A DNA stretch of 64,000 bases from Amphiscolops sp. MND2022 (Eukaryota), in assembly GCA_964187785.1 (NCBI GenBank), contig OZ076409.1, forward strand, positions 47,680,001 through 47,744,000, in the 5' to 3' direction. Below, one piece after another: positions 25,484 to 64,000 of the stretch. The notes beneath the pieces were generated by a model that was not told the DNA's origin, did no database searches, and was given only the letters and a program-made list of their open reading frames with translations. The translations under genes were made by a program, and so were the position numbers. Every line of letters begins with the position of its first letter. Within the stretch, counting starts at the first letter, position 1.

Positions 25484-25820
25484 TTGATATCCGGGATTCA
25501 ATCGATCATAACACTGGGCATTTTAAAAAAACGGTTCTCATAGTTGACTCAAAAATTGAGGCTCTTTTTGGAAATCTGGTTCTAATCACAGTGAAAAGTC
25601 AGGAAATTGCAATCAATTTGTAACTTGAAAAAAGCAATTCACAATTCCAAAAGCAATTACAGAAAGAGGACGTGGTCAGATCTGTCTTTCAGGCTAATTC
25701 GATGACAAATTTTGTTTTTCAAACTGTTTTTGATGAGCAGATTGAAAAAAGATTAGCAAAAAAGTAATATTATGATCATATGACCCCTAGAGGAGCTCCA
25801 AGGGTTAAATTCATTTTTAA

Positions 25821-26901
25821 TTTTTTATTTCTGCGGTAGCAGGAATATTATTGAAATCTCAAGGTGTCTACTTTTTTTCAGTACAATTCTTCTCGTGATA
25901 CTGAAAAATTCGGATATTTTGTTCAGCAGTGACTATAAGCGTGAGAATTAAATTTCTCAAGCTGCCGACGACAATTCAATTCTCGTGCGGTGGAATGAGC
26001 GAGTGGTAATTAATCATTCGTACGCTGACCTCATTGAGATGAAGCGAGCGAATGTTCGTAATTATGCTTTCGTATGCTTTTCGAGTTATTGAGATGGAGC
26101 GAATGAGTGTTATTATTCGTTAGTCGAGAGCTTCGCCTGCATTCAAATGCGAATGCGAAACTTCGTCTACGCTTAGTAGGTATATTTGCTTTAGTCCGAG
26201 ATTTAATGGCGGTATAAACTGGTAGAGTGATTAATTGTGCGCTAAATAATGGTTAAACAGGAGTGTATTGGTATTCCAGATATGATTCTATTATTAATGA
26301 AAGATTGAAACAGAAATAATAGTGTGCCCCGAAGGGGCCTATTTTTTAATATATCTGCTTTAGCAGGAATATTATTGTAACCTCAAACTCTCTACTTTTT
26401 TTCAGTACAATTTTTCGGACGATACTGAATAATTCAGATATTTTGTTCGGTAGTGACTGTAAGCGTGGGAAATAAATTTCTCAAGCTGGCGACAACAATT
26501 CAATTCTAGTGCGATGGAACGAGCGAGTGGTAATTATCCATTCGTATGCTGGCCTCATTGAGATGAAGCGAGCGAATGTTCGTAATTGTGCTTTCGTTGC
26601 CCCGAGTTATTGAGATGAAGCGAATGAGTGTTAATTATTCGTTCGTTGAGAGCTTCGCCTGCAATCAAATGCGAATGCGAAAGCGAAACTTCGTCTACGC
26701 TTGTTGTGTTATATTTTCTTTAGTCCGAGAAGAATTAAAGGCGGTGTAAACTTGTACAGTGATTACATGTAATTGTGCGCTAAATACTGATTAAACAAGA
26801 GTGTATTGGTATTCCAGATATGATTATTTTTTTGAAACAAAAAAATTCATTAAAAAAAGAAAGATTAAAGCAGAAATAGTACTGAGCCCCGGAGGGGCCC
26901 T
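25821..26901 (+). mobile_element. HINE-like family B, two tandem copies (about 25821-26343 and 26346-26901)
   Basis: Subterminal IR ATTTCTGCTTTA / TAAAGCAGAAAT; 3' hairpin GCCCC-G(G/A)A-GGGGC. Confidence 0.85.
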
Positions 26902-27476
26902 TTTTTTAGTCGGCGCATTTTCCTTTAAGGAAAAAAGCCCGACCATTACAGTGGCTAGTTTTTTTTTTCGTCAGACCACAGAGCTCATCGCGTGTGTATC
27001 TTTTTTTACAGAAACTGATAAGTTCACTCAGGCCAAGTTCGACCAATGCAAACTTACTGCAAAGGGTCCGTCCCCCTTTCGTTTTTTACCTTTTTTGCGT
27101 AACCTACAAAACCGGAAGACTCCAAAGGGTCCCCCTTTCAATTTTTTTTCGGCACTGCGATTTTTTTTTCGAAAATTTTTAAGGTCTCAAAAGAGTCCCC
27201 CTTTCGGGTTTTTTGATATTTTGCAACAGAAAGTATGGTAATGAATCCCAAAGGGTCCCCCTTTTCATTTTTCGGCACTATGCGAAGTTTTCGAATTTTT
27301 TTTTGTTTCCAGTCGGGAAAAGTGATTTTCCAGTCATATCGAGCATGAAAGGCACACTTTGGGTGTCTCGAAAGTGTTTTCAAAGCTTTTCATGAATACA
27401 TCCTGGGCATATTTAGAAAACTCTGCGCTTTTTGAGCCTTAGATATAGCGCCGACTTTAGACGTTCCCGTCTTGTT
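26901..27476 (+). mobile_element. HINE-like family A copy
   Basis: TTTTAGTCGGCGC ... GCGCCGACTTTAGACGTTCCCGTCTTGTT. Confidence 0.85.
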
Positions 27477-29871: not shown

Positions 29872-30242
29872 TTTTTAGTCGGCGCTTTTCTTAAGAAAAG
29901 AGTCGACTATAGTCATGGCTTTTCGTCAGTGTTTTTTTAAGACCAAAATAGACCTGAACTGACCAAAATAGTTCTACCAAAAGTTCTACAAAATTTAGAG
30001 AACACGCCAAAATGTACCTGATGGCCCAAGGAACTGAACCAAAAAGGTTTCCCGCGTAACATACGATACCGGACGAGACCAAAGGGTCCTCCCTTTCAGT
30101 TTTTTTCGGCATTGTGGGACTTTTTTCGAAAAAATTTTTTTCGTAGAAGTGTTCCCAATTCACCAATACTTGGAAATTTGAAGTCCTTTTGCTATTTTTG
30201 AGCCTTGGATATGGCGCCGACTTGGGCCGTTCCCGGCTTGTT
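29872..30242 (+). mobile_element. HINE-like family A copy
   Basis: TTTTTAGTCGGCGCTTTTCTTAAGAAAAGAGTCGACT ... GGCGCCGACTTGGGCCGTTCCCGGCTTGTT. Confidence 0.85.
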
Positions 30243-30971
30243 ATATTTCTGCGATAGCAGGAATATTATTGAAATCTGAAGATCTCTACTTTTTTTCAGT
30301 AAAATTCTTCGCATGATACTGAATAATTCAGATATTTTGTTCAGCAGTGACTGTAAGCGTGAGAATTAAATTTCTCAAGCTGTCGACGACAATTCAATTC
30401 TCGTGTGATGGAACGAGCGAGTGGTAATTATGCATTCGTACGCTGACGTCATTGAGATGGAGCAAATGAGTGTAAATTATTCGTTCTCGGAGAGCTTCGC
30501 CTGCATTCAAATGCGAATGTAAAACTTCGTCTACGCTTAGTTGTTATATTTGCTTTAGTCCGAGATATAAAGGCGGTATAAACTTGTACCGTGATTGATG
30601 ATTACGTACCAAATAACTTAAGAGCAAATAACATGAAAACAAAATTAGTTTCGAATAACATGAAAATAAAACCGAATACCCTGTTAAACAATCGATTTCA
30701 GAAAATTTTATCGGTAATTTGCACAATTTTTTCAGTGAATCTTTTGAATTGTGAATGCTTTTGACCACTAAAACTTTCTCGTAAACAATTTTATTTTTCT
30801 GTTTAGTGAAACTAATTTCAGTTTTATGTTATTTGCTCTTGTTATTTGGGAAATCACCTGATTAATTAAGCGCTAAATAATGATTAAACAGGAGTGTATT
30901 GGTATTCCAGGTATGATTCTATTTATAATAAAAGATTAAAGCAGAAACAGTGTGCCCCGGAGGGGCCTATT
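30243..30971 (+). mobile_element. HINE-like family B copy interrupted by a MITE
   Basis: Colinear with the other family B copies apart from 30597-30858. Confidence 0.85.
30597..30858. mobile_element. MITE nested in a family B element
   Basis: About 55-bp imperfect TIRs (CCAAATAAC..AAGAGCAAATAACAT); 5-bp duplication TGATT; empty site visible in sister copies. Confidence 0.75.
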
Positions 30972-35982: not shown

Positions 35983-36886
35983 AAAAAATTATTTGGAAAT
36001 TTCCTGCGGTTGCAAAAATGTTATTGTGCCTTCAAAGCGGCCGAAGTTGGAACATTATATTAAAAGTAGATGGAAGATTATATATCAACCGAATTGAAGC
36101 GAGACAAAGTATAGTGTTTTATTCTGTTTTAGTTATTGTGGCTTTGGGGGGTTGGTATAGAGTAACGTAGAGTGCCCCTTTGCTGTTAATTTTTCTTGAT
36201 TTTTTTTCTGTCAAAGCAGTGAACAACGATGTCAAAACGATGATACTAAAATTGTCCCTTGTAACCCATGGTTTATCGTTATTCCCCAATTCGTACAAAG
36301 GATCCACAATTTCTAGAGTGATCATTGTTGTGGCTAGGTATGACCAGGGGTGTGAAATATTGTATTTAAATATATTTTTTTCAAAAAATGTATATTGTTT
36401 GATTCAATTTCAGCAATGAATATATTGTATTTATTGTCCTGCAATATTTTAGAAAAACAATAGATAGTGAACTATTTTATTGGGCAGGGAAACATTCATT
36501 TACAAGGCATACATCGCAATGTTGTTTATTTGTATAAAGAAAGACTACACTCTCGAAATTAATAGGAAGCGAAAAGCTTAGTGAATTTCTCCCTTAATAG
36601 TCTTTCACTTCTATAGTCCGTTTAAAATGCATATTAAATGAAATTTTATTTCTATTTTGCAATATTTTTTTGCGAATATATATTGGAGAGCTCTGACAAT
36701 GTTTGCCTTATTTCAATAAATATATGGTATTTTTGCTCCAACTAAATAAATTCATTAATTGTATTTAATTGCAATATATTGTAATACAATATAAATTTTT
36801 ACACTTCTGGGTATGACCTGCTGTATAATGGAAGGATAGTGGGTGGATACATTGCCATTGTTTGTAGTTGTTGTTGCAGATTCCAT

Positions 36887-37264
36887 ATGGGCAAGCAGAA
36901 CAGCAAGTTAAAGCCAGACGAATTGGCCTGCTTCCGAGCCCAGACGCAGTTTACAGACGAGGAGATCACTGAGTGGTATCGCGGCTTCCTCAAGGACTGC
37001 CCGAGTGGGCAACTCTCGGTGGATGAGTTCAAGAAGATATACGCAAACTTCTTTCCCTATGGAGACGCCAGCAAGTTCGCGGAGCACGTTTTTCGCACTT
37101 TCGACGTCAATGGAGATGGCAAAATTGACTTCAGAGAATTCATCTGTGCCTTGAGTGTGACCTCTAGAGGTCATCTGGACCAAAAACTTAGATGGGCATT
37201 CAGCATGTATGATCTGGACGGAAATGGATATATCTCCCACGACGAAATGCTTGAGATTGTCACT
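36887..37264 (+). CDS. NCALD: Neurocalcin coding exon 1
   Basis: 126 codons; acceptor ttgcag at 36874-36879, 7 nt before the ATG, implies an upstream exon. Confidence 0.93.
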
Positions 37265-38134
37265 GTTAGTAATTTTGACGACCTCTTGTTTCTACTTGTG
37301 TGTCGACAGGATTCACACTGAATAAGGAAAAAAACACTGAATTTCCTCACATTATGATAAAATACAGAAGATTTCACATATACGAGGGCAGTGTAAAAAT
37401 TCAAATTAATGGTAATAATGACAATTATTGTGAATTAATTATTCAAACTATTATTTAAACCGATACTCACTTCAACATTTCCGGCTATATTGCTATCTAT
37501 CGACTTGACTTATGAACTTCTCAGTAAAATATTTCTTTAGTCTCTTCTTCAGTGTATCATACGTTTGATACGATGGGTAGGATATGATGGGTGATTGACA
37601 ATTTTCAAATTTTGCTATCCTGCTGTAATGAAATTTTTTCACGCAGCTTTATATTACGGAAGTGATCTATTCATCAACTCCTTTTTTCGTGAGTTCTTGA
37701 AAATTTCAATGCGTGAGTACAAAAGTGAAAGTTTTTGAATGGCTGTTCATTGAAAAACTGTTCATTTCAAGAAGTAAAATGTACATAAAATCGAAAAAAT
37801 ATTGGAAAATTGTAGTAGGAACTATCTGGTATCTGGTTGATAACAGCTAGAAAAAGCTCTGAAATATCCGGTATCTAGTATCCGGCAAATTGTTACCCGG
37901 TTACCACCCTACTTGACAGTGTTTGTTTCATTTTAGGCCATTTACAAGATGGTGGGATCCGTGATCAAAATGCCTGAAGATGAACAGACTCCTCTGCAAA
38001 GAACCAACAAGATTTTCAAACAGATGGACAAAAACCTCGACGGTAAACTGTCTCTGGACGAGTTCATACAGGGTGCTCGCAGTGATCCCTCCATCGTGAG
38101 ACTGTTGCAATGCGACCCCAGTGGAATCTCATAA
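36887..38134 (+). CDS. NCALD: Neurocalcin/hippocalcin-like neuronal calcium sensor, 191 aa; coding exons 36887-37264 and 37937-38134
   Basis: N-myristoylation start [41 protein letters not shown]-hands [36 protein letters not shown]; phase-0 intron ACT|GTTAGT...ttttag|GCC. The symbol names the NCALD/HPCA/HPCAL1 group, not a specific paralogue. Confidence 0.93.
37937..38134 (+). CDS. NCALD: Neurocalcin coding exon 2
   Basis: [19 protein letters not shown]...[15 protein letters not shown], then stop; AATAAA at 38415 and near 39172. Confidence 0.93.
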
Positions 38135-40689
38135 CATCCTCACCCACTAACCTCATTCATGTATACCTTCTCCACCACCCCCCCCCCTTGCTCCCCCTAA
38201 GACTGCACTCCCAGCGAGACACAAAGTGGAACACCCGAAAAACTAACCAAAACGCTCAATATGACTTCTTACCCAAAACTAGTTTGTTTGACTACTTCAT
38301 TCAAGTAAGTGCTCAACTGATTTTGGTTTCATCATAGCTCGCCTGCTTAGACTGACGAACACAAACGGCGCCTGTTTTGATTCATCGTTTTTTGAAGTTG
38401 GTGACAATTTGTGCAATAAATAAAATGACCTCGATGTTGTTTACTAGCAAAAGTGTTTTTAATAATGTGGTTAATCAGTGAAATTTTGAGTAATGATGAA
38501 CTTTCAGATTTTCGCAATCAGTTAGATGGGTTAGATATTCTGAAATATTCGATGTATTTCCGCTGTTGATTGCTGGTGAATTTAACGCTTATAGTTAGTT
38601 GTTGCTACTGCTGTTAAAGGTACAATTTGTCAGTCACAGTGCTACACGAGCGTCGCAGTTTGCCTTCACATTTATTATAGGCTTGCATAATTTTGGTCTT
38701 TTTCGTCTGTTTTTGATGGAAGTCAAATCACAAGTGTCATGTGTTTTCAAGTGTGACTGAGTAATGTGGTCACCATGACTATATAGTGAGGGGTTTTGCT
38801 AGTACGTAAGTGGGCGTGGTGCAAACAAAGGTCACGGAAATTAAAGGTCAAAGTGCTTCTGAACTAATTGATCCCATCCAAATAATAGACCAATTTATTT
38901 TGAACATGAGACCTCTGCTCACATGCAATAGGGTGCAATTGAATATTCTTTCTTTCATTTGGCCTCTCTGTATGTTGTTTCTTCGTTCTATCTTTTCTAT
39001 TTTTATTGCTGCCATCTTTGAATGGTCGCCTTCTCACTGTAGTAGTTGGCTGCCTGTTTTCTCAAATGACGTCATCTCAGTCCTCATCCTCTTTCTTCAT
39101 GTTCGCCCTTTAGTGTACATGCCCCGCCCACTCCTGAAATCTTTCAATTGTGAATCAACTCAGCTGGTATGAATAAATAATTTTTAGATTCATTATTTTG
39201 CTAAGTAACTTAATTTGCCGATGCCTTCGAGAAGAATAAATATTTTATTGATGAAACATTTCTTTTCTAATTTTCCAAGCGCGTGATGAACAGAAAATGC
39301 AAAAAACGACAAGTCCGAAGTTTTTCTGCACCAAAGCTGGTATTGAGTACTGTAACACCGTGGCCACTTGAAAAGATTTACCCACCGATGTGATTTTGGC
39401 CGATGTTTTTACGGGAGCTGCTGCTAGCAAATTGCTAGTAGCAATGGATAAAGTCATGCTTGACCGAACAAACGTCATTCATTTGATGTTTACATACTTG
39501 GGTACTTATTTCTACGATGAAAAATCTGACGGATGTCATTGAAATTACTAGAAATTTAAAAATAGAAATTGGGAAATTACGGTAGCGTCTCCATTGAAAT
39601 TTCGGAACAAGATTGTGAACTTTAAAGCTACAATCTTGAGGATAGACTTCATAAATCTTTATTCATTCCAGAGTACAATTCATTGTTATTCTACGATGAA
39701 ATCTTTCGTTTAAGTACCTTCGATCCAATATTGACACGGTACAAAAACAATTTGATTTTTAGCTATATCAATCATAGTTGCTGTAACTGCGATAAGTTAG
39801 CTAAATAGTAATTTCAATAATTTAAGTTTTGGGACTGACAGTAAATTTACTTCGGCCTTTTTCAATGAGGAGATTCACATTTCCGGTGAAACAAATTACC
39901 ATAAACTCTAGTGCTTTTCGAAAGCAATTTTCCTGCGTCTACTAGAAGTAATATCAACTGGCACGATCACGTCAAATACATGTAGTTTTGAGAACATATG
40001 CTATTTCTTATCGATAGGAAATATTTTATGAATTCCCTGAAAGGACAAATGTTTTCAAACAAATAGTGTTGTTTTCTGGCGCAATGCCTGAAAAACATTT
40101 TCGAAATATGAGCTCAAATCACCTGTCACTGCAAAAGAGTCTTAATTTGAAAATATAATCTCAACTTGTGTATCTCCTATTTTAGTGCTCAAGAAGTTTG
40201 ACGAAAGCGACTGTAAAACGTTCTGCGGTCACGACGCGTCTGAAAGTCTCGTGATTTTTCACTTATTTGCTGTTTCGGAACACGTTTTGTGCATGTCTAA
40301 GTATCAACATAAGGCGGAGAAAAGTAGAACAATGCCAGCCGTTTTCAGTTGAAAAATGTCTTGCTAATTATCAGGTCTTGCTTCAGCTAGACAACTATTG
40401 CAACTGGCCAGGACTTTCTTGTTTAAATACTGTGGCATATGTCAAAATAAACCAGACAGTAGTAATGCACCTGCCCGAACTTTCACTGGGACTGTACTCA
40501 CTCTCATGTCATTACAGTGTGTGACGCTGAAAATTTAATGAACGACATTCAAAATTTAGGAACCAATCAGGTGAAAGATTGAATTCATTGAAAGAATAGT
40601 CAACTTTCAACAAATATTCAAAATTTCAACGTTTACAGCACCGAATGATTATAAAACTGCAAAAATTAGCTTGAGTTATTACAAAGATT

Positions 40690-41190
40690 CGTGTCCGTTT
40701 AAGTTCGCCACTTTTAAGTTCGCCACATATAAGTTAGCCCGTAAATCTTAGCCATATTTAATTTAGCCACCATATATGTTCGCCACATACAAGTTCGCCA
40801 CATTTTCGGCCAATCAAATTCGAGCATTCAAAATTACGATAACGTAGTCAGATATGTTCACATACCCCTAGTGCCCTAAATGCAGGAGCGAAGCGAAGCG
40901 GAGCGACGTGCCATATGGCCATGCCTCAATGTTGCTACTTGGCGAAGGGAGCAAAGCGACCGAGCCATACAACAAGTATGCTAATCGCCACTAAATATAA
41001 CCAATTGAAAATAATCGCTGATATGGAATTCTTTCATTAGCTGAAATGTGGCGAAAATAAACGTGGCGATCTTATATGGTGGCTAACTTAAACGTGGCGA
41101 TCTTATATGGTGGCTAACTTAAACGTGGCTAAGTTTTACGGGCTAACTTATACGTGGCGAACTTAAATATGGCGAACTTACAACGGCACC
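40690..41190. mobile_element. Foldback-like MITE with long sub-repeated TIRs
   Basis: Arms made of AAGTT(C/A)GCCAC sub-repeats in inverted orientation; 8-bp TSD CAAAGATT (40682-40689, 41191-41198). Confidence 0.88.
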
Positions 41191-44459: not shown

Positions 44460-47400
44460 TGTTTCGCATCAAATCTCTCTTCACAGATCTGTACCAGCTT
44501 AGTTCCTTGTAAAAGAAACTAAATTTGAATCATTAACGTTTCTTCCTGAAAGTACCAACAGCAATATCTAACAGTAGCGCGGGTTGACATCATCATTAGA
44601 TATTTCATATGCAAAATAAGGAAATGAATCATTAATGAATTTCAAGTACTGAACATGTCGCCCGCCTTGATTTCCTCTTCGGAAATCAATCTAATTTCAA
44701 GTCAGTAGCTGGGCAGTGGCAGTTTTCGTAAGTTAGAACGGCTCGTTTTTAATCTCCACTCCTTGTCTTTACTTTACCAACCCTCGCAATGGAATCTCGC
44801 CCAACGTAAAGTTGCTTGACAGGTCCTAACGGCTATTGTTTTGGTGGAACATTGTCGTCAGTTATGTACAATAGATATCCAAGCTTTCGGTTGGGGACTT
44901 CAATTACTTCTTTCTTGGAGACTGGCGACATACACTTTACTCCATCGCTTCCAGAAATGTGTCAATTTTGCTTGGATACAAGCCCATCTTGTTTTTAAAG
45001 TTGCAATGCGAAATTGAGATTGCATCTTGGCTAACTTCTACTGTCGATGGCAAAGCTTCCAACTTTGCACCCATACATAACTCTGCTGGAGTGAGTGGTA
45101 ATTCATCTTTAGAATTATCACTCAGAAAACTAATGGGGCGAGAGTTCAAGACCATTTCAATCTGACAGAAAAGGGTCTGCAGTTCTCATAATTTAGGACA
45201 CATTTACCCATGACACGTCTCAGGTCTTTTTAGCGCTTTTTATGCCGCTTCCCACAAGCCATCAAAATGAGGAGCCCTGGGAAGAATAAATATCTAAACA
45301 ACTGACAATCCTGTTTAAAAAGCCTGCAAAGAATCGCTATGATTGGCTACAAGTAGCTTTTGAAGTTCGTTCAGCTCTGCTTGCGCTCCAGTGAAACTTG
45401 TTCCGTTATCGCTAAATATACTCTTGGGACAGCCTCGGCGTGAAACAAATCTTCGTAGTGCAGCAATAAAGCCTTGCGAACTCAAGTCGGACACTAACTC
45501 CAAGTGCACAGCACGGCTGGCAAAACAAATGAAAAATACCCTTTTCACAAATTTTATCCAACTTCGAGACTTCTATTTTACATAAAAATGGTTTTCCGAC
45601 ACCAACATCTTGGAATGCTCTAGTTGGATTATCTATTCATTCCTTCGGCAAGTCACCCATCAAAGGATTCATGTCTCTGGTTTGGAAGCCACAGCAAGAA
45701 ACACAGTTTCTGACAATTTTGCGTATCAAGTTTCTACACATGGGAATTGTTGCTATTTCGCTTTATCGTTGAGTCCTACCATTAGCTAAGCGTCCTCCAA
45801 CGCAGAGAACTCCATCAATCAGGAAAGGATACAGCATTTGAAATTTCTCTATTTTTTCACTTGTGGACTAGTTTGAAGCGTTTTTATTTCATCGGAGAAG
45901 AATTTTTTCTGCTCCTGTACGAGGAGGTTGTTCATGGCTTCAGTTAGCTCGCCGGTTATGATGGAATTGAGATACTTGGCTTCATAATTACAGACAGAGA
46001 TAAATCTTTTGACGTAAGCAACATTTCGGAGAATTCTTTTTGAGGAACGTTGCCTTGATGAATCAATAATGTCTTGAGATTCTGGAACTTGAGATAGGTT
46101 AACCAAAACTTTTCGTTTCATTTCGTCTTTCGTGGTAAGAATATCCATTTTCTTTGGCATTGCGCCGGGAATCAACCACTTAGGCCCCTTCCACCATAAA
46201 CTCAACTGTTTTGAACTGGAAGGATCTACCCTGTTTGCACAATCCGCAGGGTTTTCATGAGATGGTTCATGGTTCCATTTGAAATCAGCACATTCCTGAA
46301 TTTCTGCTATTGCTATTCTATTAGCAAAAAACGTAGACCAGGTATCTGCTTCTCAGTTCAGCCAACTAAAAACAATGGTAGAGTGCGTCCATGCGAATGT
46401 CTTGCCAATACTTAATTCCAATCTTTGTAATGATTTAACTGTTGATAAAAAAGTCGACATCCCAATAGAGCAGCACAAAGTTACAAACGAGGAATGGATT
46501 TTGATCCTATTGAGGCTACTTTTGACTTTGCGACAAGTGAAGTTTAGCTTCGCTCATCGTTGTTTTGCGAGACTACGAAACCACAAGCGGCAGAGTTCCG
46601 AAGCGTCACAAAATACATGGAGGTCAAAAATATCCAATTGATCCATTTTCAGAACGAATCTATCCTGTTCAATCAATTCAATACAACCAGGTTTTTCTCG
46701 CCTATCCACATATTCCTGCGGTAGGTCAACAGGCACGTTTTGATCCCAATCTAGTTTTGCAATCCACGCTTTTTGCATCAGGCACTTCATGGAAATTATG
46801 TCATGTGTTAACCAACCAAGAGGGTCAAATGTTTGATCAATGTCACTCAGCATTTGGCAATTGGCGATTGATTTTGCCTGCAAGGGTTTTGATTTCGAAA
46901 TGGTGAAGCGAAACTTATCAGACAAAGGGTTGCAAACAATTCCCAATGTCTTTTTTGTATATTATTCGTCTAGAAATTTGAAACTTTAATTTGCCTCCCT
47001 GTACTCAGGTGGGAGACACAGAACAAGTTCTGGGTCACTACTCGTCCATTTCCTCAAATTAAATTGAGCTTGCTTTAGAGTAGAGACTGAACCAAGTTGA
47101 AGTTCCTTTGCCTTTGATGCAGAACTAGCGCCAGTCAAAATATCATCAACGTTAAAACCACGCTGCAGTGCTTCTTAGACCTCTTTGGGAGTTGTTTCAA
47201 AGTTTGCACACTCTGATAAAGATCGAATGGAAGGATGAAAGATCGAATGAAAGGGTGAACTAGCTACACCATAGGTTACACTCATTCCAAAGGTCTAATT
47301 TTTTTTGCCCGAGAATCGCCAAAGTATACGATGAAAATATCAACCACATTTCTGTTATTCAACTTGATCGTACAGTTCAGCTACGTCTGCGGACATCGCT

Positions 47401-48998
47401 ATCTTGAAAAAACCGAATCGAACAAGAGTATCGAATTCTCTTGAAGATTCGGGCCTATCATTAGGCAACCATTCAAAGAGAAATCACTTGTTGTTTTTGC
47501 ACTTGCATCAAAAACAACTCGCAGTTTGGTTGTGGAACTATCTACCTTGAACACGCAATGATGAGGAAGATAAAAGTACTGAGGATTATTCAATTCTCCA
47601 TTTGGTACTTTTTTCATGTGTTGTAAGTCAAAAAACTCTTTTAAGAAGTCTGAGTACCTTTTGTGTAACTCAAGATCGCGTAGCAATTTTTTTCCAAAGT
47701 TAAAAACCGTCGCAAAGCGAGGTTTTTGCTCAAACCCAGTTTGAACTCTCCCTCATGGAAAGCCATTCGAACGACAAATCGACCTTCGGGATTGCGTTTT
47801 GTTGTATACTAAAAGTGATCCTCAGATTGGGTTTCTTCAAGAGTTAGAAGTTTGTGTTAAAGGACCAAAAGCTAGCGCCCAAAACTTACTTATATGTGAA
47901 TCAGTGGTCAGTGTCGTTGTAACATGACAAAAAAGTAATTAACTTCCAAATCAGCTGTCGTCGTTTTGATGGGACCAGATATAATCCAACCAAACATTGA
48001 TTCTCGCAAGTAAACACCGTTATCTTTTTCACGGTTTTCCAACATGACTTCTTCAGTGACGTGCTAGGCACATCAATAGTGCTAGGCACGGTGAAATGGG
48101 GATCGGCCATTTTCAAATTTTGAAAGTGCCGCGATTTTGTGTGACGGAATGTGGTTTGTAATCTTCGGTAATATAAACGAATTAACATCAATTTTCACTT
48201 GGAAGCCTTGCAATTTTTATTGAATAATGGCTCGTTAAGAAGCAAAAACAATCTTGTTCTGTGGCACGATATTTACAAAGAACTAATCTCTCTTCACAGA
48301 TCTGTACCAGCTTAGTTCTTTTAATATTTCTGCTTTAGCAGGAATATTATTGAAATCTGGAAACGCCTACTTTTTTTCAGAACAATTTTTCGGACGATCT
48401 GAATAATTCAGATATTGTGTTCGGCAGTGAGTGTAAGCGAGAGAGCTGCCGAAGACAATTCAATTCTAGTGCGATGGAACGACCGAGTGGTAATTACCCA
48501 TTCGTATGCTGACGTCATTGAGATGAAGCGAGCGAATGTTCGTAATTGTGCTTTCGTTGCCCCGAGTTATTGAGATGAAGCGAATGAGTGTTAATTATTC
48601 GTTCGTTGAGAGCTTCGCCTGCATTCAAATGCGAATGCGAAACTTCGTCTGCGCTTAGTAGTTATATTTTCTTTAGTCCGAGAAGAATTAAAGGCGGTGT
48701 AAACTTGTACAGTGATTAATTGTGCTCTAAGTAATGATTAAACAGGAGTGTATTGGTATTCCAGATATGATTATTTTATTAATGATTTTTTTGTTTCAAA
48801 AAAATAAAGATTAAAGCAGAAATAGTACTGAGCCCCGGAGGGGCCTATTTTGTAAAAGACATTACCTTTGAATCATTAACTTCTCTTACTAAAAGTTTCA
48901 ACAACATTGACTAATGAAAATGCGGGTTGAAACCATCATTATATGTTTCATATGCAAAATAAGGAAATGAATCATCAATAAATATCAAGTATTGAACA
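44460..48998 (-). mobile_element. Decayed Bel/Pao LTR retrotransposon
   Basis: Minus-strand pol pieces [89 protein letters not shown]. Related LTRs at 44460-44655 and about 48280-48998 begin TGTTCA on the minus strand. PPT-like CAAGGCGGGCGACA; near-TSD ATAGG/ATAGC. Confidence 0.9.
48319..48849 (+). mobile_element. HINE-like family B copy inserted in the Bel/Pao LTR
   Basis: The other LTR shows the empty site CTTAGTTCCTTGTAAAAG: insertion in a T-run with no visible TSD. Confidence 0.88.
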
Positions 48999-50413
48999 AT
49001 AGCTTCTTCAAAAAACTGAACTTGGTTTTGATTACGCCTATGAACAATCAAACTGGTTGAAGAAACAAGGAATCTGTGTAAATTCGTAACGTTTACAGAT
49101 TTATGCCATTTTGTAAAAAAAGTTTTAGGATTAGCGCATACAACCACACTTCTACAGAAACTGATCGACAAAACATTGTAATTCAAACACTCAGCATGGC
49201 TAGATGACATCATGATAGTTCCCAAATGCGACATAGGAAAACACGAATCGGAGATAGAAGAAAGACTAAAAGAGTTGAGTTTTCAAACACGAGAACGAAA
49301 GAGTTGGAAACAAAATTGACCAAAACTGAATCAGGGCACTCCAAAACAAAGGCAATAACAGAAAGTTTTATCCCGGAAAAAAAACGAAAAGATACACACA
49401 TTTTTCCTCGGTGCAATCCAATATCTGTCAAATTACATCGAAGATCTACCCACACACATAGATTTCAGAGAAAGCTAGTCAAGAAATAAAACTATTTGAT
49501 TTGGCCAGACGAACACGCCAAAGCTTTCAAAAAGTTGAAAAACTCACATCACAAATTCAAGTCCTAGGTCATTACAATCAAAACAACGACAATATACCAA
49601 TTACAGTTGCAAATACCATGGGATTGAGAGCGACAACATGGCCAGAACCAATGATGGAAGCTCAAAACCAATCAAAATTGGCCGCAATTTCTGGGACACT
49701 GAAAACAGAGACGCCACAATTGAACTGGAGCTACTTGGTGGTGTGGACAAAGGAACGTTTTGAAGTAAACTGTTACAAAAGCTCTGTTGAATTACTTAGC
49801 GATCACGAAGCGTTGGAACATTCAATTAAAAAGGATAGATCGAACAAAACTTACGGTGCTAGACTAACTAGATGGTTAAACAGATTGGCGCACAGTATCG
49901 ACAAGAAAAGAAAGCACATTGCAACTAACGTTTCTTGATTAATGGACTTTTCGAATAGAAATCTTGTAATTATTGCCGATCCAATCAAAAATTATGTTGA
50001 GGAGTACGTGATCAACTGCCGCTTTACAATTTTGATAGCCTGCCGAAGCCAGAAAGCCATTACCAAAAACGGACCAAATACAGCTTTCAGATGGATGTAA
50101 CGAGTAGTCAGTCTGAAAGCAGATACATACAGCAAACGTCAACGAGCACCAACAAGCAAAGCAATTGCAGTTCGTTGCTAGTATTTACACTGAAACTTAT
50201 CATCACTAATATCACAGAAAAAATGGACATAATACCAATGATGCTTTTGAGAATTGAATTGACAGTATATTAGGAAGAAATAGTGTAACCCGGTGATTAC
50301 AGAGTCTCAGACGGACAATGAAGAAGATATAACCCTCCAGGACATCACAGGGCCGAACGAAAACGCATAGAAGTTTCATTGAGGCCAAGGAGAAGTCGGA
50401 TACCGTGGGACAG

Positions 50414-51945
50414 AGTGTAACGAAACAATCGAGAATCAAGAGAGACAATGAAAAGTATTTCACTGCGATTGAGAAAATCAGAATCAGGCCAAACCGTTCG
50501 AAAAACAGGGCACATTGGATTTAAAAAGAGACAAATGGAGACAGAAACACTAACACCGGACGCAAATGAAACAGGACTGGTGTCAACATGTTCGGAACAA
50601 ACAATAAGTGTACCGACCATCAGTTTTAACAGGTATCTTGTCGCAACCGGTGTGTGATATGTACCAATGGAAAAGCAAACACTGTACCAATGTCCAAGCA
50701 AATACGGGACGTGACTCAAGACGAGCGAAAAGCTTGTCGCGACTTGAAGATTATTAGCACGGGTTAAACCAATGACGAGAAGTTCTCGAAAACACCATTA
50801 TGTCTTGATAAACAGTGGCACAAAGAAGGACCTGAACAGAATCAAAAACTGAAGAAAAAACTTTTCAACGATATTTGGACGACAATTCTATAATAGCAAA
50901 GCTACTCAGAACAACGCTGTTGACACTAATGCACATTGGTGACCAATAGTGGTAAAGAATACCCAAACAAAGTGCGACGAGTCTATACCAAGCAAAAAGT
51001 GAGGTACGAGAATCAAAATATGATTATTTGATTCTCTTACCTCACTTTTTGCTTGATACAGACTCGTATTTGCTTGGACATTGGTACAGTGTTTGCTTTT
51101 CCATTGGTACATATCACACCGGTTGCGACAAGATACCTGTTAAAACTGATGGTCGGTACACTTATTGTTTGTTCCGAACATGTTGACACCAGCCCTATTT
51201 GCGTCCGGTGTTAGTGTTTCTGTCTCCATTTGTCTCTTCTTGAATCCAATGTGCCCTGTTTTTCGAACGGTTTGGGCCTGTTTCTGATTTTCTCAATCGC
51301 AGTGAAATATTTTTCATTGTCTCTCTTGATTCTCGATTGTTTCGTTACACTAAAATCGTTCTCGTTGAGGCGTCAGGTCATTTCATTAGTCGTTCTATCG
51401 CACTGTCGTTGGTAACAATGGGTGCCTTTTGTTTACTTCACATAGATGTCTTCATCAAATGCTTTGCATTCTTTTCCTCTAAACACAGTTACTCTGTTAG
51501 TACGTACTGTTTGCAGGCTTCCATTCTATAAAATGTATTGTTCAAGTTTTGTTTTTGCTGTTTGCTTCATATAGACACGCTGCGGGCCAACATCTACCCA
51601 CCACCGAGAAAATCGGATCAAGAAATCCGTTTAAGTTTTCGGACTAATCAGATTTAAACACCGGATATTTGACATACTAATTTTTGTCAAACATTTAGAT
51701 GTTGGCCCGCAGCGTGTCTATATGAAGCAAACGGCAAAAACAAATCTTGAACAATACACTTTATAAAATGGAAGCCTGCAAACAGTACGAACTAACAGAG
51801 TAACTGTGTTTAGAGGAAAGGAATGCAAAGCATTCGATGAAGACATCAATGTGAAGTAAACAAAAGGCATCCCATTGTTACCAACGACAGTGCGATAGAA
51901 CGACTAATGGAAATACCTGACGGCACAACGAGAACGATTTCAGTG
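50414..51945. repeat. Compound inverted duplication A-spacer-C-C'-A'-B'-spacer-B
   Basis: A 50414-50706 / A' 51065-51351; C 50977-51017 / C' 51027-51067; B' 51348-51596 / B 51696-51945; arms differ by scattered substitutions and indels. Confidence 0.92.
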
Positions 51946-52534
51946 GACGGATGTAACTTCAACGAGACATTAAACCAATCACTGATAGAAATGATAACAA
52001 CGATAAATTTAAAGATAGTAGAAATTTCGTTCGAACGACTTTACGGAAGAAAGCTTCGAATGGAAAACAACAACTTTTTATTCTTCACAATGGATTAGGA
52101 ACAAATGTCTGACTCAGCCAAGCCAGAGTTGTCACAGGTGTACTCGTTCATGAACGGGAACGGAAAATCGGACCAGCTGATAATGATGGCACCAAGAGTA
52201 AAGTCAATGTTATTAAGAACATTCGATATTATTAACATTATTATTGACATTATCAACAAAAAATTCTTTTGGAAAGAACGCAAAACCAGAACAAGTTTGA
52301 AAGCGCATATTGTACAAATTAGCAATTAGCCGTTGCGGGGACAAAGCGTACCACAACTACTAAAACTGTCAAAACATACCTCGAATAGGGGCAAACTAAC
52401 CGCTTCCAATTTTCTTTCAGACTCCACGGTGGGAGGGAATCGATGAGAACCCTGACTCGTTCTCTCCAAAAGACTTTCTTTCCAGAAAACCTCCATTAAC
52501 AAATAACAGATGCCTGAAGCAGAAGATACAGATA

Positions 52535-53705
52535 CACTATGTGGGCAAAATGTGTTCAACCATAAGTCTTTTTACAATAAACACCATCAAACTAAGTATA
52601 TTAACACAACAGTATGCATCAATTTTTAATCATGAGGTGGGTACCCCTTCTTTTGGCTGCACTCGCGCATTCTTTTGGGCATGCGCCGATACAATTTTTG
52701 GATATATTCCACGGGTATATTTGCCCAGATACTGCAGATAGTTTCCTCTAGATTCTTGAAGGGCATTTGCATGGTTTAGAGCTGTTTTTTCACGTAAGAC
52801 CAACTGTTTGAAACATGTTCTATTGGGTTGAGGTCCGGGCTGTGGGCAGGCCAGCAGACCTAACCAAATCCATTTTCTATCTTCCATTCTTTGACATTTT
52901 TGTCCAATTTAAGTTGTAAGGAGGCAAATTTCGAATGCCTGCCGTCTCTAAAATTGATATATACTCCCGAGCATTACAGCGATTTGATTTTTCAATAGGA
53001 GCAAGACACCATTTTAACTAATGGCTGCCAAAATTGAAATGAAGTGGTCATACGATCATACAGATCATACGACCTCTACACTGTTCACTGATTGTTGCAC
53101 CTTTCACCAGTCAATTTCCAGACCCAAACTCTCACATCACTCTGTAACTTAAAACGACACTCGTCGGAAAAGACACACCTTGATCATTCCTCGGTATGCA
53201 TGCACTTTTTTTCATTTACAGATCTCAGGCGATCCTAGCGAACCTTATCTTTCAAAAAACTTTTTAGGCTGCTGCTCTTCCCACCATATTGTGCCGTTTT
53301 GAAAGTGGCCGATTCGTTTTTTCGCACACCATATTATTGACGCGGAAGCTGTTGCACTCATATCGTAATTGTTTGCAGTATAGAAATCAGTTTTCTTTCT
53401 TTCTCATTGAAGACACTTCAGTTCTTTCGTTCAGTGTTTTTTGGACGCCCACTTGACTTTTTGGGCATAATTGATCCATCAGGCAAACAATGCTGGTATA
53501 CTTGATACGCGGTTGCCTTGCTTTTGAATCCAAGTTGTTTGGCAATATCCGAAAATGTAGCTTTTCTCTCCCGAAGAGCAACGATTTGATAACGTTTTTC
53601 CAACGAAACTTATTTTCCCAAGTTTTAACATATGAAACCAAGCTTGGTTGAAACGGAAATGAAATTATGTGAACAGAAAGTTGAAAACATTTTGTCCACT
53701 TAGAG
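52535..53705 (-). mobile_element. Tc1-like DNA transposon, full length but decayed
   Basis: Imperfect 26-bp TIRs (CACTATGTGGGCAAAATGTGTTCAAC / CTCTAAGTGGACAAAATGTTTTCAAC) with TA on both sides; HTH ORF 53418-53603 ending SGRP; FSDEC and WPAHSPDLNPIEHV motifs in broken frames. Confidence 0.9.
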
Positions 53706-53835: not shown

Positions 53836-53953
53836 ACAAACAAACAAACAAACAAACAAACAAACAAACAAACAAACAAACAAACAAACAAACAAACAAA
53901 CAAACAAACAAACAAACAAACAAACAAACAAACAAACAAACGAACAAACAAAC
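53836..53953 (+). repeat. (CAAA)n microsatellite, about 29 units
   Basis: Read directly; one CGAA variant near the end. Confidence 0.98.
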
Positions 53954-54629
53954 GGCACTCAATCAGAAGAAGCAACAACAGCCATGGACAATTTCGTCGG
54001 TGAGACAACAGTAACTGATCAAAGCGGTTATAATGAAACAATTCCAATTTAACACCAAAAATTTGATGATTCCATATGATAAAAAACGACAACGATGAAA
54101 ATCAGCATCAATTTTTCGGACCATGTCATCTATTTTCCCCCAGGTACAACTTGTTAGGAATATCCCCCCAACACGAAAGCATATTTTGTTCTTGAATAAA
54201 AATATTTCGCTAATAAGAGAATATCATATGATTGTGAATGCTCAGAAGATTGTCTCCACAACTCTTTGGAATCTTCAGGCAAAAAAGTTTCATAATTTTT
54301 TGATATTATTGTCCAAAATAGCAGAAATTCACGTTTGCTATAAACGAAAATCGTATCAAAAGGCCCCTATTTGGCGCAACTTTTTTCGGCTATAAAATCT
54401 AATGAGCAACTTTTAACTGACAGTCAATGTAATTGATAGGATTATGTCGACATCAATTATTTTATTGAACCAAAATTTCAACGCAAACGATGTCGACATA
54501 ATGGTATTTGAACCTTCTGTCTTACTCCCCCCCCCGCCGCAGTTTGGGGCGGAAATAGATGACATGTGTCGCGTTATGACTAACGCTTAATGAATAATTT
54601 AAAAGCAACTGCAACAATAAAGTACTCAA

Positions 54630-55115
54630 CAAAAACACCTGATTTAATAAAAAAGCACAACAATCATCCCAGGGCTACTCTTCCGTTTCTATACAAAAAG
54701 CACCTGCATAGATACAAAGCATAATGAACATCTTTGTGCTACAGTGCAGCTTATGATTGAAAAACACCTGAATTAATAAAACACTCGACAATTGTCCCCT
54801 GGCTTCAGTGCAGTTTGTATTCAAAAAACACCTGCAAAAACAAAGCAGGAAATTAAACTAACCTGAAGAAGGAGGAAGATGGGGATAAATTTAATGTAGG
54901 GCGGCCGACAGAAAAAAAGAAGCCGCAAAATAATATAATTTAGGGATACAAATACCGCCGGATTGCACAAATGAAAAATTCTATTATTTAACGCGGTGAT
55001 TCGAAATCTAAAGCTAAGCTCTGATTGGCTCAATGCGAAACAGGCCACCCATGCACTTCGGCAGAAGTGCTGAACTGTTTTTATACGGCGTGCACAGGCT
55101 GGAGCTTCATTCTTC
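54630..55115 (+). promoter_or_regulatory. LTR promoter/enhancer: phased E-boxes, CCAAT box, TATA-like box, Inr
   Basis: CACCTG at 54636, 54701, 54765, 54829; ATTGG at 55024; TTTTATA near 55079-55085; TCATTC at 55107, about 27 nt after the TATA-like box. Confidence 0.5.
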
Positions 55116-55437
55116 CCGCCAACCGCAAAGCTTCAACTTAAAGAATCTCTCTCCCTTCCTCACTTCTCCTTCTCTTCCCTCCACTTGCTCCAACTCTACT
55201 TCTTCTCTTCTCTTCACTAAATTCTTGAATTATTTCCCCCGTGGACAAAAACTTCTATCTTCCTTTCTTCCCCTCTTTTGCTTTGGCTCTAAAATTTGCT
55301 AAGTCACATCCTTCTTAGCTGAATTTTCTATCTTAGAAAATTCAGTTCAATCCGACAACCAACAGTCCCCGGTCTGGTGAGTGAAAAATAACTTAGTTTC
55401 CTTCTGTGGAGATTTCTGAATCTCCTTTTTCTAACTT

Positions 55438-56044
55438 AATTCTATCTTAGAATAGTTCCACTGATTTTACTCAGTGGTTGTTAAAATTCTATCTTAGTAA
55501 AATTCCGCTGATTTCACTCAGCGGTTGTTTAAATTCTATCTTGGAATAATTCCACTGATTTTACTCAGTGGTTGTTAAAATTCTATCTTAGTATAATTCC
55601 GCTGATTTCGCTCAGCGGTTGTTTAAAATTCTATCTTCGAATAATTCCACTGATTCTATTCACTGGTTGTTAAAAATCTATCTTAGTATAATTCCGCTGA
55701 ATTCACTCAGCTGTTGTTTAAAAATCTATCTTAGAACAAATCCACTGATTCTACTCAGCGGTTGTTAAAACTCTATCTTAACAAAAATTCCGCTGATTTC
55801 ACTCAGTGGTTGTTAAAATTCTATCTTAGTATAATTCCGGTGATTTTAGTGATTTTACTCAGCGGTTGTTAAAATTCAATCTGACAATAATTTCACTGAT
55901 TCTACTCAGTAGTTGTTAAAATTCTATCATAGTATAATTCCGGTGATTTTAGTGATTTTACTCAGCGGTTGTCAAAATTCTATCTTAGAATAATTCCACA
56001 GATTGTGCTCAGTGGTTGTTAAAATTCTATCTTAGAGTAGAATT
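55438..56044 (+). repeat. 47-bp tandem array (about 12.5 units, partly a 94-bp dimer), each unit with inverted-repeat hairpins
   Basis: TCTATCT-type cores at 55441, 55488, 55535, 55582, 55630, 55677, 55725, 55772, 55820, 55876, 55923, 55979, 56026; two units carry a 9-bp internal duplication. Confidence 0.95.
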
Positions 56045-57152
56045 AAATGAATGGTTAGCGCTACACAAGTATTAACAAAATCATTTCACCTTATTTACCC
56101 TGTAAATTTGTTTCTTACCAAACGTTTCAATACTGTCTCCATACCCAACAGAGCAGTGACTCTGAAAAACTAAAATTCGTCAGTTTAAACTATCACTGAT
56201 TATAAACATCCCTTATTCGGAGCTAATCTAAAGCATTTTCAAGATGAAGATGTAAAAACTTGCACTTCTATCTGTAATTTTTAAAAATGTTTTCTGATGT
56301 AATTTATAAAGCTACTTTGCTCGAAGTTAAAATAAATCCTTTAAATTTACTGCTGAAGTAAATAAATAGTTGATTTGCTGCTGAATTTAACTTATGATGG
56401 AATAGACACTGAGATGCCTAAAAAATTTCGCTTAGTACTATTGTCCGTTCACGTGAGATAATTCAACATATTTACTTATCTTACTTTCCTTTTAGTCAGA
56501 GAGCTCATTTACATACACTGCCTTGCACGTACTCACGCAATTTCCTTTGTTAACACGTACACGCAAGGCACTTCCTTTCTAGTATTACACAGAGTAAGCT
56601 TTGAGACTTTCTTACTCACTTCTAATCAATATTTAAATACTTGCCTGAAAATACTTTGCAAAATGCTAAGTAAGCTGAACTGACTAAAACTGATAACAAT
56701 TGAACAGTCCCTTGAAAAGAGAGAAACAGAAATCTGCAAACAGTAAAAATTTATCTATGCGTGCGACAAACTGGGCGACCAGCGAGGCAGTTTCTTCAGT
56801 AAATGAGCAATCACTTGGAATCCCTACTCGTTGCAGTTAGGGTTAACTACTTACTCAATCTGATTTCAATCTTTACTTTGTTTCTTTGTTTGCCACAATA
56901 TGTTACAACATTACCAGGGAAAACGCACATTTCCGAGATACTCATCAGCAATTGAGCACGAAGACCTCACCGCCCAGACTCAGGTATCACCTCACCGGAA
57001 AACCAGCAGTTTTTGACGCCCACCTCGCCTGGTCAACCGTCAACCTCCCATCCACCTGGCATTGAGACACTACTTCAAACCAAAATACAATCACTTACTA
57101 TACCACGAAAGTAGCTCCCCCGAAAAATTTTCTCAAAAACCCAGCTCTGAAG

Positions 57153-57701
57153 ATGTCAACAACGTCAAACACTCTAATACGCCACGACGACCCCCAACTA
57201 ACTCTATCACCTCCAATCCTTACAAAGGTGTCTACAAGAGGTGGAATGGTACTTATCCAACTGGACCAAATCACCGTTTCCCATCTGAGAACAGCCTGGA
57301 TGCCACACCCGTTTCACAGAAACTATTACTACTGGGCTACCACAGGACCCCTTGATTTGCAACCTCTCGAATTGCCACCCCTCATTGCAACAGTTAAAAT
57401 TTGTTGGAATGGATGTTCCAAACAAGAAAGTAATAAATTTGTATCTGTTTTTGTTGAAATCCGAGACCCTGACCGCAAAATTCTCTCCACCCCCTTCACA
57501 GTACGGCTCTTTTTTAAAAACTTCAAGAACAAAAACGGACAGTCACTGCACCGAAGCTTCAAATTAACGCCTTCTGGAAATAGCATCGAAGGTGGAATCA
57601 AAGATTTCCTGCCCCTCACTATTTTCAACGCTACTCTAGCTAAAGACAATATCGTCACTTTCGGCATTCTTATCAAACGACTCTCACCCCCAGCTCCGTA
57701 A
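57153..57701 (+). CDS. Intronless 182-aa ORF with a TRAF-C/MATH-like domain, downstream of an LTR and PBS
   Basis: By-eye match to the TRAF-C pattern: STRGGMVLIQLDQI, ATVKICWNG...KFVSVFVEI, ILSTPFTVRLFF, GGIKDFLPL...LAKDNIVTFGILI. No stops or frameshifts. Confidence 0.65.
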   Translation: MSTTSNTLIRHDDPQLTLSPPILTKVSTRGGMVLIQLDQITVSHLRTAWMPHPFHRNYYYWATTGPLDLQPLELPPLIATVKICWNGCSKQESNKFVSVFVEIRDPDRKILSTPFTVRLFFKNFKNKNGQSLHRSFKLTPSGNSIEGGIKDFLPLTIFNATLAKDNIVTFGILIKRLSPPAP

Positions 57702-63509: not shown

Positions 63510-64000
63510 TATCCAAATGGTGTGCTTTTCACCCGGGACACCTTTTCAATTCTACTTTCCATAGATTAATATAGTTTTGCTAGTTTCTTGATCAATATTG
63601 TTCAAAATTTCTAGTAATTGTTCTTCTAAATTTTCCCGAGAATCTGTCTGTTTGCGCAATCGTTCTTTAATAATGGCCCATAAATTCTCAATAGGGTTCA
63701 GGTCAGGGCTATATGCGAGGTAATCCGAGATTTTCCAGCTGTTTTCAGCAAAGTACTCCATAATTTTCGTCGCTTTATGGATAGGGGCGTTGCCTTCCTG
63801 ACAATCTAAAGCTTCAAAATGGAGAGTTTCTTGGTTTTCTGCAACACTTTCAGATATTCATCACTGTTCATGTTGTTCGAGCATTTAATAGGCATTTTGC
63901 GGTCATCAAATCGTATTGTTCCTCGAAATATAAGCGATTCTTTGTCTCTGCTAATTTTTAAAAAGTTTTCTTCATTTTACCTTGTTCCATTCTTCTTAAA
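63510..64000 (-). mobile_element. Tc1-like transposase C-terminal remnant, runs off the window
   Basis: QEGNAPIHKA...YSPDLNPIENLWAIIK. Confidence 0.85.

Follow-up and report, generated by a model that had tools for sequence, protein, structure and literature searches.

Why does a tandem array in the genome of Amphiscolops sp. carry a stem-loop whose two arms change together between alternating units? The 47-bp array lies at positions 55437 to 56044 on the plus strand of the window, the 64-kb stretch of DNA that we analyzed, and comprises 12 units and a partial 13th. The first-pass annotation had read the hairpin as CCACTGA-TTTTAC-TCAGTGG in units 1 and 3 and as CCGCTGA-TTTC(A/G)C-TCAGCGG in units 2 and 4, an A-T pair exchanged for a G-C pair, and the sequence bears out both forms exactly. 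Tandem Repeats Finder describes the array with a period of 47 (55438 to 56036, 12.3 copies, 76% matches) and, with a better fit, with a period of 95 (6.1 copies, 86% matches), and for the 3' end it gives a period of 103 bp. Divided by hand, the 12 full units span 55437 to 56021 and the partial unit runs to 56044. Units 1 to 6 form A/B dimers of 94 to 95 bp, units 7 and 8 are mosaics of the two types, and units 9 and 11 carry a 103-bp duplication with a 9-nt insert.

The alternation extends beyond the stem. In units 1 to 6, five columns change in lockstep, two in the stem, one in the loop, and two in the flanks; all 10 column pairs, with a single base pair among them, have a mutual information of 1.0. 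When all 12 units are considered, each stem column is tracked better by an unpaired column (0.65) than by its own partner (0.35). Next-but-one units (lag 2) lie at a mean distance of 5.5 and neighbors (lag 1) at one of 9.0, as in a minisatellite with a higher-order repeat. Because five columns alternate together and only two of them pair, the A-T/G-C swap is a single old event carried along by the 94- to 95-bp dimer and not the product of repeated selection on a helix. The annotation had itself cautioned that one event might have been amplified as a 94-bp dimer, and the caution was justified. One event can even produce both arms at once: template switching is described, in the available text of one study, as a source of perfect stems and apparent compensatory changes (PMC8794818).

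Two other causes of the alternation found little favor. CpG decay is disfavored as a strong driver of the swap, with a CpG observed/expected ratio of 0.92 in the window; each of the two changed bases is part of a CpG in B units, and in young inverted repeats 2 transitions were counted over 44 CpG sites versus 11 over 443 other sites. Selection of the alternation against mispairing between units has little support on the plus strand, where hairpins form with a probability of 0.51 to 0.57 in the alternating array and 0.47 to 0.55 in single-type arrays, and brings a small gain on the minus strand.

Is there covariation beyond the single pair? The units, all from one genomic copy, give no sign of it. 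The 7-bp stem is perfect in 4 of the 12 units, contains a G-U pair in 1, and has a mismatch in 7. A two-sided change is found at one of seven stem pairs, and the covariation score was reached by 186 of 500 shuffles, which is not significant for 12 units of one copy. The flanks can extend the stem only through a U-G pair, as had been claimed, and the outer pair of this flank helix is present in only 7 of the 12 units, among which no additional covarying pair was found. The second hairpin of the unit, TTCTA-TCT-TAGAA, shows no two-sided change in the 12 units; its pair between columns 5 and 16 is broken in five of them, and in B-type units the hairpin is broken without compensation. Hence, the covariation at several pairs that characterizes structured packaging or export RNAs was not seen in this copy.

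Constraint on the stem was not detected either. With the 9-nt duplication of units 9 and 11 and the gap columns left out, parsimony gives 0.64 changes per site in the stem, 0.70 in the flanks (p 0.50), and 1.5 in the loop, the excess in the loop having a p value of 0.04 by parsimony and 0.20 by distinct alleles. The comparison of stem and flanks is a weak test because most breaks in the stem are changes in single units that decay after insertion could explain: from the rate in the open reading frame (ORF) described below, about 14 private changes are expected in the array after insertion, and 21 single-unit changes were counted by hand. Most stem breaks may thus postdate insertion and would then be silent about the active lineage. 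The stem is disrupted by a change that units 9 and 11 have in common, and the coupling of A-T and G-C fails in units 7 and 8. On the other side, the chance of a compensated pair among five neutral A/B differences is about 0.01 to 0.03, a value that does not yet allow for selection of this locus by scanning, and when units 9 and 11 are re-registered, 10 of the 12 units have a Watson-Crick pair at the swapped position (Fisher one-sided 0.04, with the relatedness of units ignored).

The hairpin of the unit goes only modestly beyond chance. A perfect 7-bp stem was obtained in 3 to 5% of 1000 shuffles and is present in 6% of 1128 natural 47-mers. The folding energy of the unit has a P value of about 0.008; when the null is built by tiling a shuffled unit, P is 0.025 (of 200). 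The z-scores for the whole array, −6.0 on the plus strand and −7.4 on the minus strand, are inflated, since the array is built of copies and one unit is in effect counted twelve times; folded individually, units 1 to 4 and 8 have z-scores of −3.1 to −4.3. The pair probability of the hairpin is 0.98 on the minus strand versus 0.52 to 0.73 on the plus strand, so that the plus strand has no folding advantage. Rfam gave three weak matches in 5 kb and none at the gathering score, and the array thus corresponds to no known RNA family.

These data bear most directly on the proposal that the array acts on the genomic RNA of a retroelement as a multivalent signal for packaging, dimerization, or nuclear export, with one protein bound per 7-bp stem and 6-nt loop and the repetition raising avidity. 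Retroviruses use RNA elements such as psi, CTE, and RRE for packaging and export. As in these and in the Cer1 element, hairpins here lie near a splice donor in an element of LTR type, and an accessory protein possibly comes from spliced RNA; the available text on Cer1 describes a protein, CERV, that is made from spliced mRNA and needed to export unspliced RNA (PMC10309623). The place of the array in the presumed R/U5 region, between a strong donor on its 5' side and a site resembling a primer-binding site (PBS) on its 3' side, would suit such a signal, as would the one fully compensated pair and the z-scores of units 1 to 4 and 8. The rare 12-bp stem and a further hairpin, clustered beside the donor, speak against units devoid of a selected helix. 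However, there is no Rfam match, no second covarying pair, and no strand preference that would favor RNA, the minus strand folding better; 7 of the 12 stems are mismatched, the loop, which is the part that proteins usually read, is the most variable region, and the array may be exonic. We therefore regard an RNA signal as unlikely.

The annotation had also offered a precursor of small RNAs. The array does fold well below shuffled sequences on both strands, and long imperfect helices between units are possible, but the stems of the units measure 7 bp (12 bp with the extension) and the arms of pre-miRNAs about 20 bp. With no long unbranched stem and no family match at the gathering level, a miRNA or endo-siRNA precursor is a very improbable identity for the array.

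A palindrome is symmetric with respect to the strands, and the same pattern could arise if the units were sites for a DNA-binding protein, each with two 7-bp half sites and a free 6-bp spacer, in an enhancer, insulator, or silencer. A symmetric change of the site would mimic a compensatory pair, and the spacer indeed varies more than the arms. All eight matches to CTGA-N6-TCAG in the window lie inside the array (0.87 expected), and a separate repeat with E-box-like motifs is found upstream in the same element. In Drosophila elements, leader arrays are placed between the LTR and gag, whereas the present array would lie upstream of the PBS-like site and inside the LTR, with a palindromic unit and a higher-order dimer. 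Otherwise the present case agrees with gypsy, ZAM, Tirant, accord, and Idefix, LTR-type elements whose transcribed leaders likewise contain a tandem array; in the accessible passages on Drosophila, tandem repeats are reported for the 5' untranslated regions of 19 of 49 LTR retrotransposons, and some of them have enhancer, silencer, or insulator activity (PMC8872304). A leader array in an LTR setting is therefore of an ordinary kind, such repeats being common. Against protein-binding sites, the half sites are conserved no better than the flanks, and the putative sites correspond to no named factor; we give this explanation a low probability, like that of the RNA signal.

What, then, is the element that carries the array? 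The window is repeat-rich animal DNA with fragments of retroelements and DNA transposons. A neurocalcin/hippocalcin-like EF-hand gene lies at 36785 to 38170, with two coding exons and an intron of about 670 nt. A dispersed repeat of 530 to 570 bp occurs at 25818 to 26908 (in tandem at 25.8 to 26.9 kb), 30237 to 30599, and 48318 to 48855. Minisatellites of 15 and 31 bp at 40698 to 41185 form an inverted pair (40695 to 40801 and 41079 to 41186, 87%) in a layout like that of foldback transposons, and an (ACAA)n microsatellite at 53836 to 53953 has 29.5 copies of 98% purity. Degraded remnants of transposon coding sequence are found at 45849 to 46352 (minus strand), 49100 to 52400 (plus strand), 53418 to 53609 (minus strand), and 63552 to 63857 (minus strand); their frames are, in this order, of a type that we take to be Pao-like (with no Pfam match), RT_RNaseH-like, HTH, and DDE_3. 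Nested fold-backs occupy degraded retroelement DNA at 50414 to 51945, where arms of about 290 bp (50414 to 50706 and 51065 to 51351, 96%) enclose a 41-bp hairpin and are followed by a second pair (51348 to 51596 and 51696 to 51945); this region would yield long double-stranded RNA if transcribed.

The array itself is located in a candidate 5' LTR of 2.2 kb (54567 to 56768, plus strand; 2202 bp), with TGTCGC at 54567 and GCGACA at 56763 to 56768. These TG...CA ends weigh more than they would alone because the left end adjoins an independent boundary, being the base directly after the end of a MITE-like element (P of about 1e−4 for a given hexamer at a given base). The MITE-like element lies outside the LTR at 54122 to 54566, and is 445 bp long, with 20-nt inverted ends (54122 to 54141 and 54547 to 54566) starting and ending in the palindrome CATG.

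The candidate LTR has an order of motifs that fits transcription from within. U3-like repeats of about 64 bp at 54631 to 54847 (plus strand) contain four CACCTG motifs resembling E boxes (54636, 54701, 54765, and 54829) and would make up a second tandem repeat of the element, possibly enhancer-like. They are followed at 54899 to 55112 (plus strand) by motifs that we take to be those of a Pol II promoter, namely, a GC box at 54899, a reverse CCAAT box ending at 55030, and an Inr-like TCATTC at 55107; a weak TATA-like TTTATA was seen by eye near 55080. Transcription would start near 55108, and the leader between the Inr-like motif and the 12-bp stem is pyrimidine-rich. Two hexamers that resemble polyadenylation signals (AATAAA at 56331 and 56361; 56331 to 56366, plus strand) would, if used, define an R region of about 1.25 kb that contains both the donor and the array. 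Three nucleotides past the end of the candidate LTR lies a PBS-like site that begins with TGG, TGGGCGACCAGCGAGG (56772 to 56787, plus strand), which presumably resembles primer sites for tRNA-Arg; the window contains no tRNA gene and thus no match for this site. The 64-kb window holds no second LTR, polypurine tract, or target-site duplication, and no gag or pol match to Pfam was found in the 22 frames scanned of the 42 frames of at least 60 amino acids between 52400 and 64000. A C-rich skew ends near 57800, and near 57850 the copy itself seems to be cut off; as judged from this layout, it is a truncated or nonautonomous copy.

Downstream of the PBS-like site, an intronless ORF of 182 amino acids at 57153 to 57701 (plus strand), present in many copies, has a MATH/TRAF fold. 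Its match to Pfam MATH_2 has 19.6 bits, below the cutoff of 32, and its matches in the protein atlas are MATH proteins; an AlphaFold model (pLDDT 73.9) matches the MATH domains of SPOP, TRAF, and USP7 with E-values of about 1e−4. Among 43 candidates we found 14 related clusters, one of which has 36 members and brings the number of near-identical copies to at least 36, with the 15 members among the matches listed lying on many different contigs. Nine of the 14 cluster representatives are shortened or frameshifted. In the 16 near-full-length rows of 19 aligned, the present copy has 10 private residues of 182, and the identity among several other copies is 99.5%; by this measure the present copy is old and the other subset young and recently amplified. 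Ten divergent relatives that we looked up have one or two members each. They are likely host genes, and the amplified subfamily was likely captured by a recently active element. No fusion of the MATH ORF to gag or pol appeared in a weak search, and none of the 19 profile-search matches is a retroelement polyprotein; two long ones (P0052 and P0054) are unrelated repeat-family proteins. Searches of metagenome and viral contigs, by protein and by unit pattern, returned no related loci.

The promoter and leader are dispersed as well. A gene call on a noncoding frame (P0059) matches 54971 to 55431 at 125 of 150 residues of the conceptual translation, across the promoter, the 12-bp stem, and the donor, and stops just before the array. 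Because its contig and that of a copy of the ORF (P0029) both measure 49,705, the ORF very probably moves along with the promoter and leader, in a multicopy family that comprises the 36-member ORF cluster and this leader copy. At three TGA codons of the window P0059 has W; the simplest explanation is that TGA was read as W in the gene calling, so that these positions cannot be judged. Judging by its other residues, P0059 does not retain the outermost pair of the 12-bp stem, nor a part of the hairpin that follows the donor.

Could segmental duplication, or capture in a DNA transposon, instead have multiplied a host MATH gene that consists of a promoter, a noncoding first exon, an intron that bears the minisatellite, and a single coding exon? 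The lack of a second LTR in the window and of gag/pol in the 22 of 42 frames would fit this, as would the existence of divergent low-copy MATH relatives and, weakly, the failure to find a longer fused form. In addition, the pairing of an LTR-type end with a downstream TGG is not rare, 6 of 15 nearby CA-then-TGG sites having a 6-bp inverted partner. A cluster of 36 members, on many contigs among the matches listed, with a subset at 99.5% identity and 9 of 14 representatives shortened or frameshifted, argues against it, and so do TG...CA ends of which the left sits on an independent boundary and the right 3 nt before TGG. A multiplied host gene is thus a possibility of some substance, albeit a doubtful one, and would be compatible with a neutral reading of the array. 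We consider it probable that the element is an LTR retrotransposon; the LTR-like ends, the PBS-like site, and the promoter, leader, and ORF in other copies support the retroelement setting that the annotation had envisaged.

How would RNA from this element be processed? Two of the features on which the annotation relied stood up well. The stem at 55319 to 55345 (plus strand) has 12 perfect base pairs and a 3-nt loop, with pair probabilities of 0.97 on the plus strand and 0.92 on the minus strand, and is one of only two such stems in the window (at least 12 bp, loop of 3 to 10 nt), the other being at 18020 to 18051 with an 8-nt loop. It has the words CTGA/TCAG and TTCTA/TAGAA in common with the array unit. 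The donor consensus CTG/GTGAGT at 55374 to 55382 (plus strand; GT at 55377) scores highest among the leader's 93 GT sites, and over the whole window 23 of 6836 GT sites score as high; the codons around it are retained in the P0059 copy. An additional perfect 7-bp hairpin at 55408 to 55425, between the donor and a branch-like motif, is apparently altered in P0059. The array starts 60 nt past the donor GT, close to the 55 nt or so that had been claimed.

A branch-like CTAAC followed by an acceptor-like AG at 55450 or 55455 (55431 to 55455, plus strand; background 3 of 104 points) would define a short intron of 74 to 79 nt that ends within unit 1. Farther downstream, at 56495 to 56499 (plus strand), lie acceptor-like sites whose pyrimidine content is the highest of the leader, and a distal acceptor candidate has its AG at 56917 (56870 to 56917, plus strand). 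A putative long splice from 55377 to 56917 would remove the poly(A) signals, the PBS-like site, and all 13 upstream ATGs, and the ATG of the MATH ORF would become the first; the chances of ATG-free exon parts are 0.14 and 0.10. The array had been proposed to be kept only in unspliced RNA. This fits the long splice, whereas splicing of the 74-nt intron at 55450 could place the array in an exon and keep it in spliced RNA, so that the proposal describes one of at least two options. An intron in U5 must remain in the packaged RNA or is lost at reverse transcription, and some unspliced RNA would therefore be needed under either option. Because unit 1 starts at the acceptor-like site, the array may have grown from a duplicated 3' splice-site region.

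The same sites suggest a more elaborate scheme, in which the array is a series of 3' splice sites masked by hairpins and, together with the donor at 55377, balances full-length RNA, the 74-nt splice, and the long splice to a MATH mRNA. Unit 1 begins at the acceptor-like site with its CTAAC branch motif, most units have CTGAT, a branch-like word, in the 5' arm as well as two YAG words within the 3' arms, and the long splice would leave the MATH ATG first. The donor may also suppress the poly(A) signals of the 5' LTR in the manner of foamy viruses, which, in the text accessible to us, carry their major splice donor within the LTR at a point upstream of the poly(A) signal (PMC3694450), the order predicted here for the donor and the two AATAAA. 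The likeness is an analogy only, the present element being of invertebrate type, with predicted signals and a much longer putative R region. Moreover, the acceptors of the units have a pyrimidine content of only about 0.6, units 3, 5, 8, and 10 have lost the AG, and all of these sites are motif matches in AT-rich DNA, picked after the fact. Masked acceptors are in our estimate improbable.

The MATH ORF invites comparison with the giant gypsy-like elements Burro and GYPSM1 of planarians. In the portions of the report available, these elements carry a MATH_TRAF_C domain, which in one Burro-like element forms an upstream accessory ORF, and the element maps of Burro mark tandem repeats (PMC6431247). 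The present element resembles them in its MATH domain, by fold match and with Pfam MATH_2 below the cutoff, but their polyprotein of about 5000 amino acids, a gag-pol with gypsy reverse transcriptase, is absent from the present copy, and the weak search found no fused form. Because the closest relatives of the ORF are low-copy stand-alone MATH proteins, the domain appears to have been captured separately from Burro. The element would thus work like an LTR element with an accessory MATH ORF in the style of Burro, while this copy lacks the polyprotein that would mark it as a member of that group. In the accessible parts of a literature drawn mostly from outside subscription journals, covering MATH domains in LTR retrotransposons, Burro, LTR stem-loop repeats, and LTR introns or donors, neither this element nor a hairpin-masked acceptor array is described.

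On balance, we favor the view that the array is a palindromic minisatellite expanded by slippage, that its alternation records the history of the dimer, and that the units contain no selected RNA helix. The setting would be the transcribed part (R/U5) of a long 5' LTR in a retrotransposon family with a MATH-domain accessory gene. In the history that we hypothesize, slippage in the course of replication or reverse transcription first duplicated a stretch, rich in hairpins, with which a short intron of the leader ended at its 3' side. Two copies would then have diverged at five columns in one episode, two of these columns being paired positions of the stem, either through selection at that time or through a template switch that copied one arm from the other. 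The A-B dimer would have been amplified and later scrambled off register, giving rise to units 7 and 8 and the 103-bp duplication, and after insertion the copy would have decayed by about 2 to 3%. The unit could serve as a strand-symmetric spacer of variable length, with the hairpins as a by-product that favors slippage.

The compensatory swap is, at this point, not evidence of a working RNA structure. The locus provides a more general caution: covariation that alternates perfectly along a tandem array can go back to one event that a higher-order repeat has multiplied, with alternation of unpaired columns as the telltale sign. Since MATH domains serve as adaptors for ubiquitination and in immune signaling, a MATH cargo could interfere with the control exerted by the host. 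The recently amplified mobile family with a stand-alone MATH/TRAF-fold gene has its only described counterpart, in the parts of the literature compared, in the Burro-like elements of planarians. If the hairpins were selected, the array would offer a compact model for the choice that an LTR element makes among splicing, polyadenylation, and packaging. It is conceivable, although we rate the chance as slim, that an undescribed LTR-retrotransposon family with a captured host MATH/TRAF gene sets the fate of its own RNA by hairpin-masked 3' splice-site cassettes in the LTR. In that case, the length and folding of the array would set the ratio of full-length RNA to spliced MATH mRNA, and the number of units would be a tunable, heritable control of mobility versus interference with host proteins.
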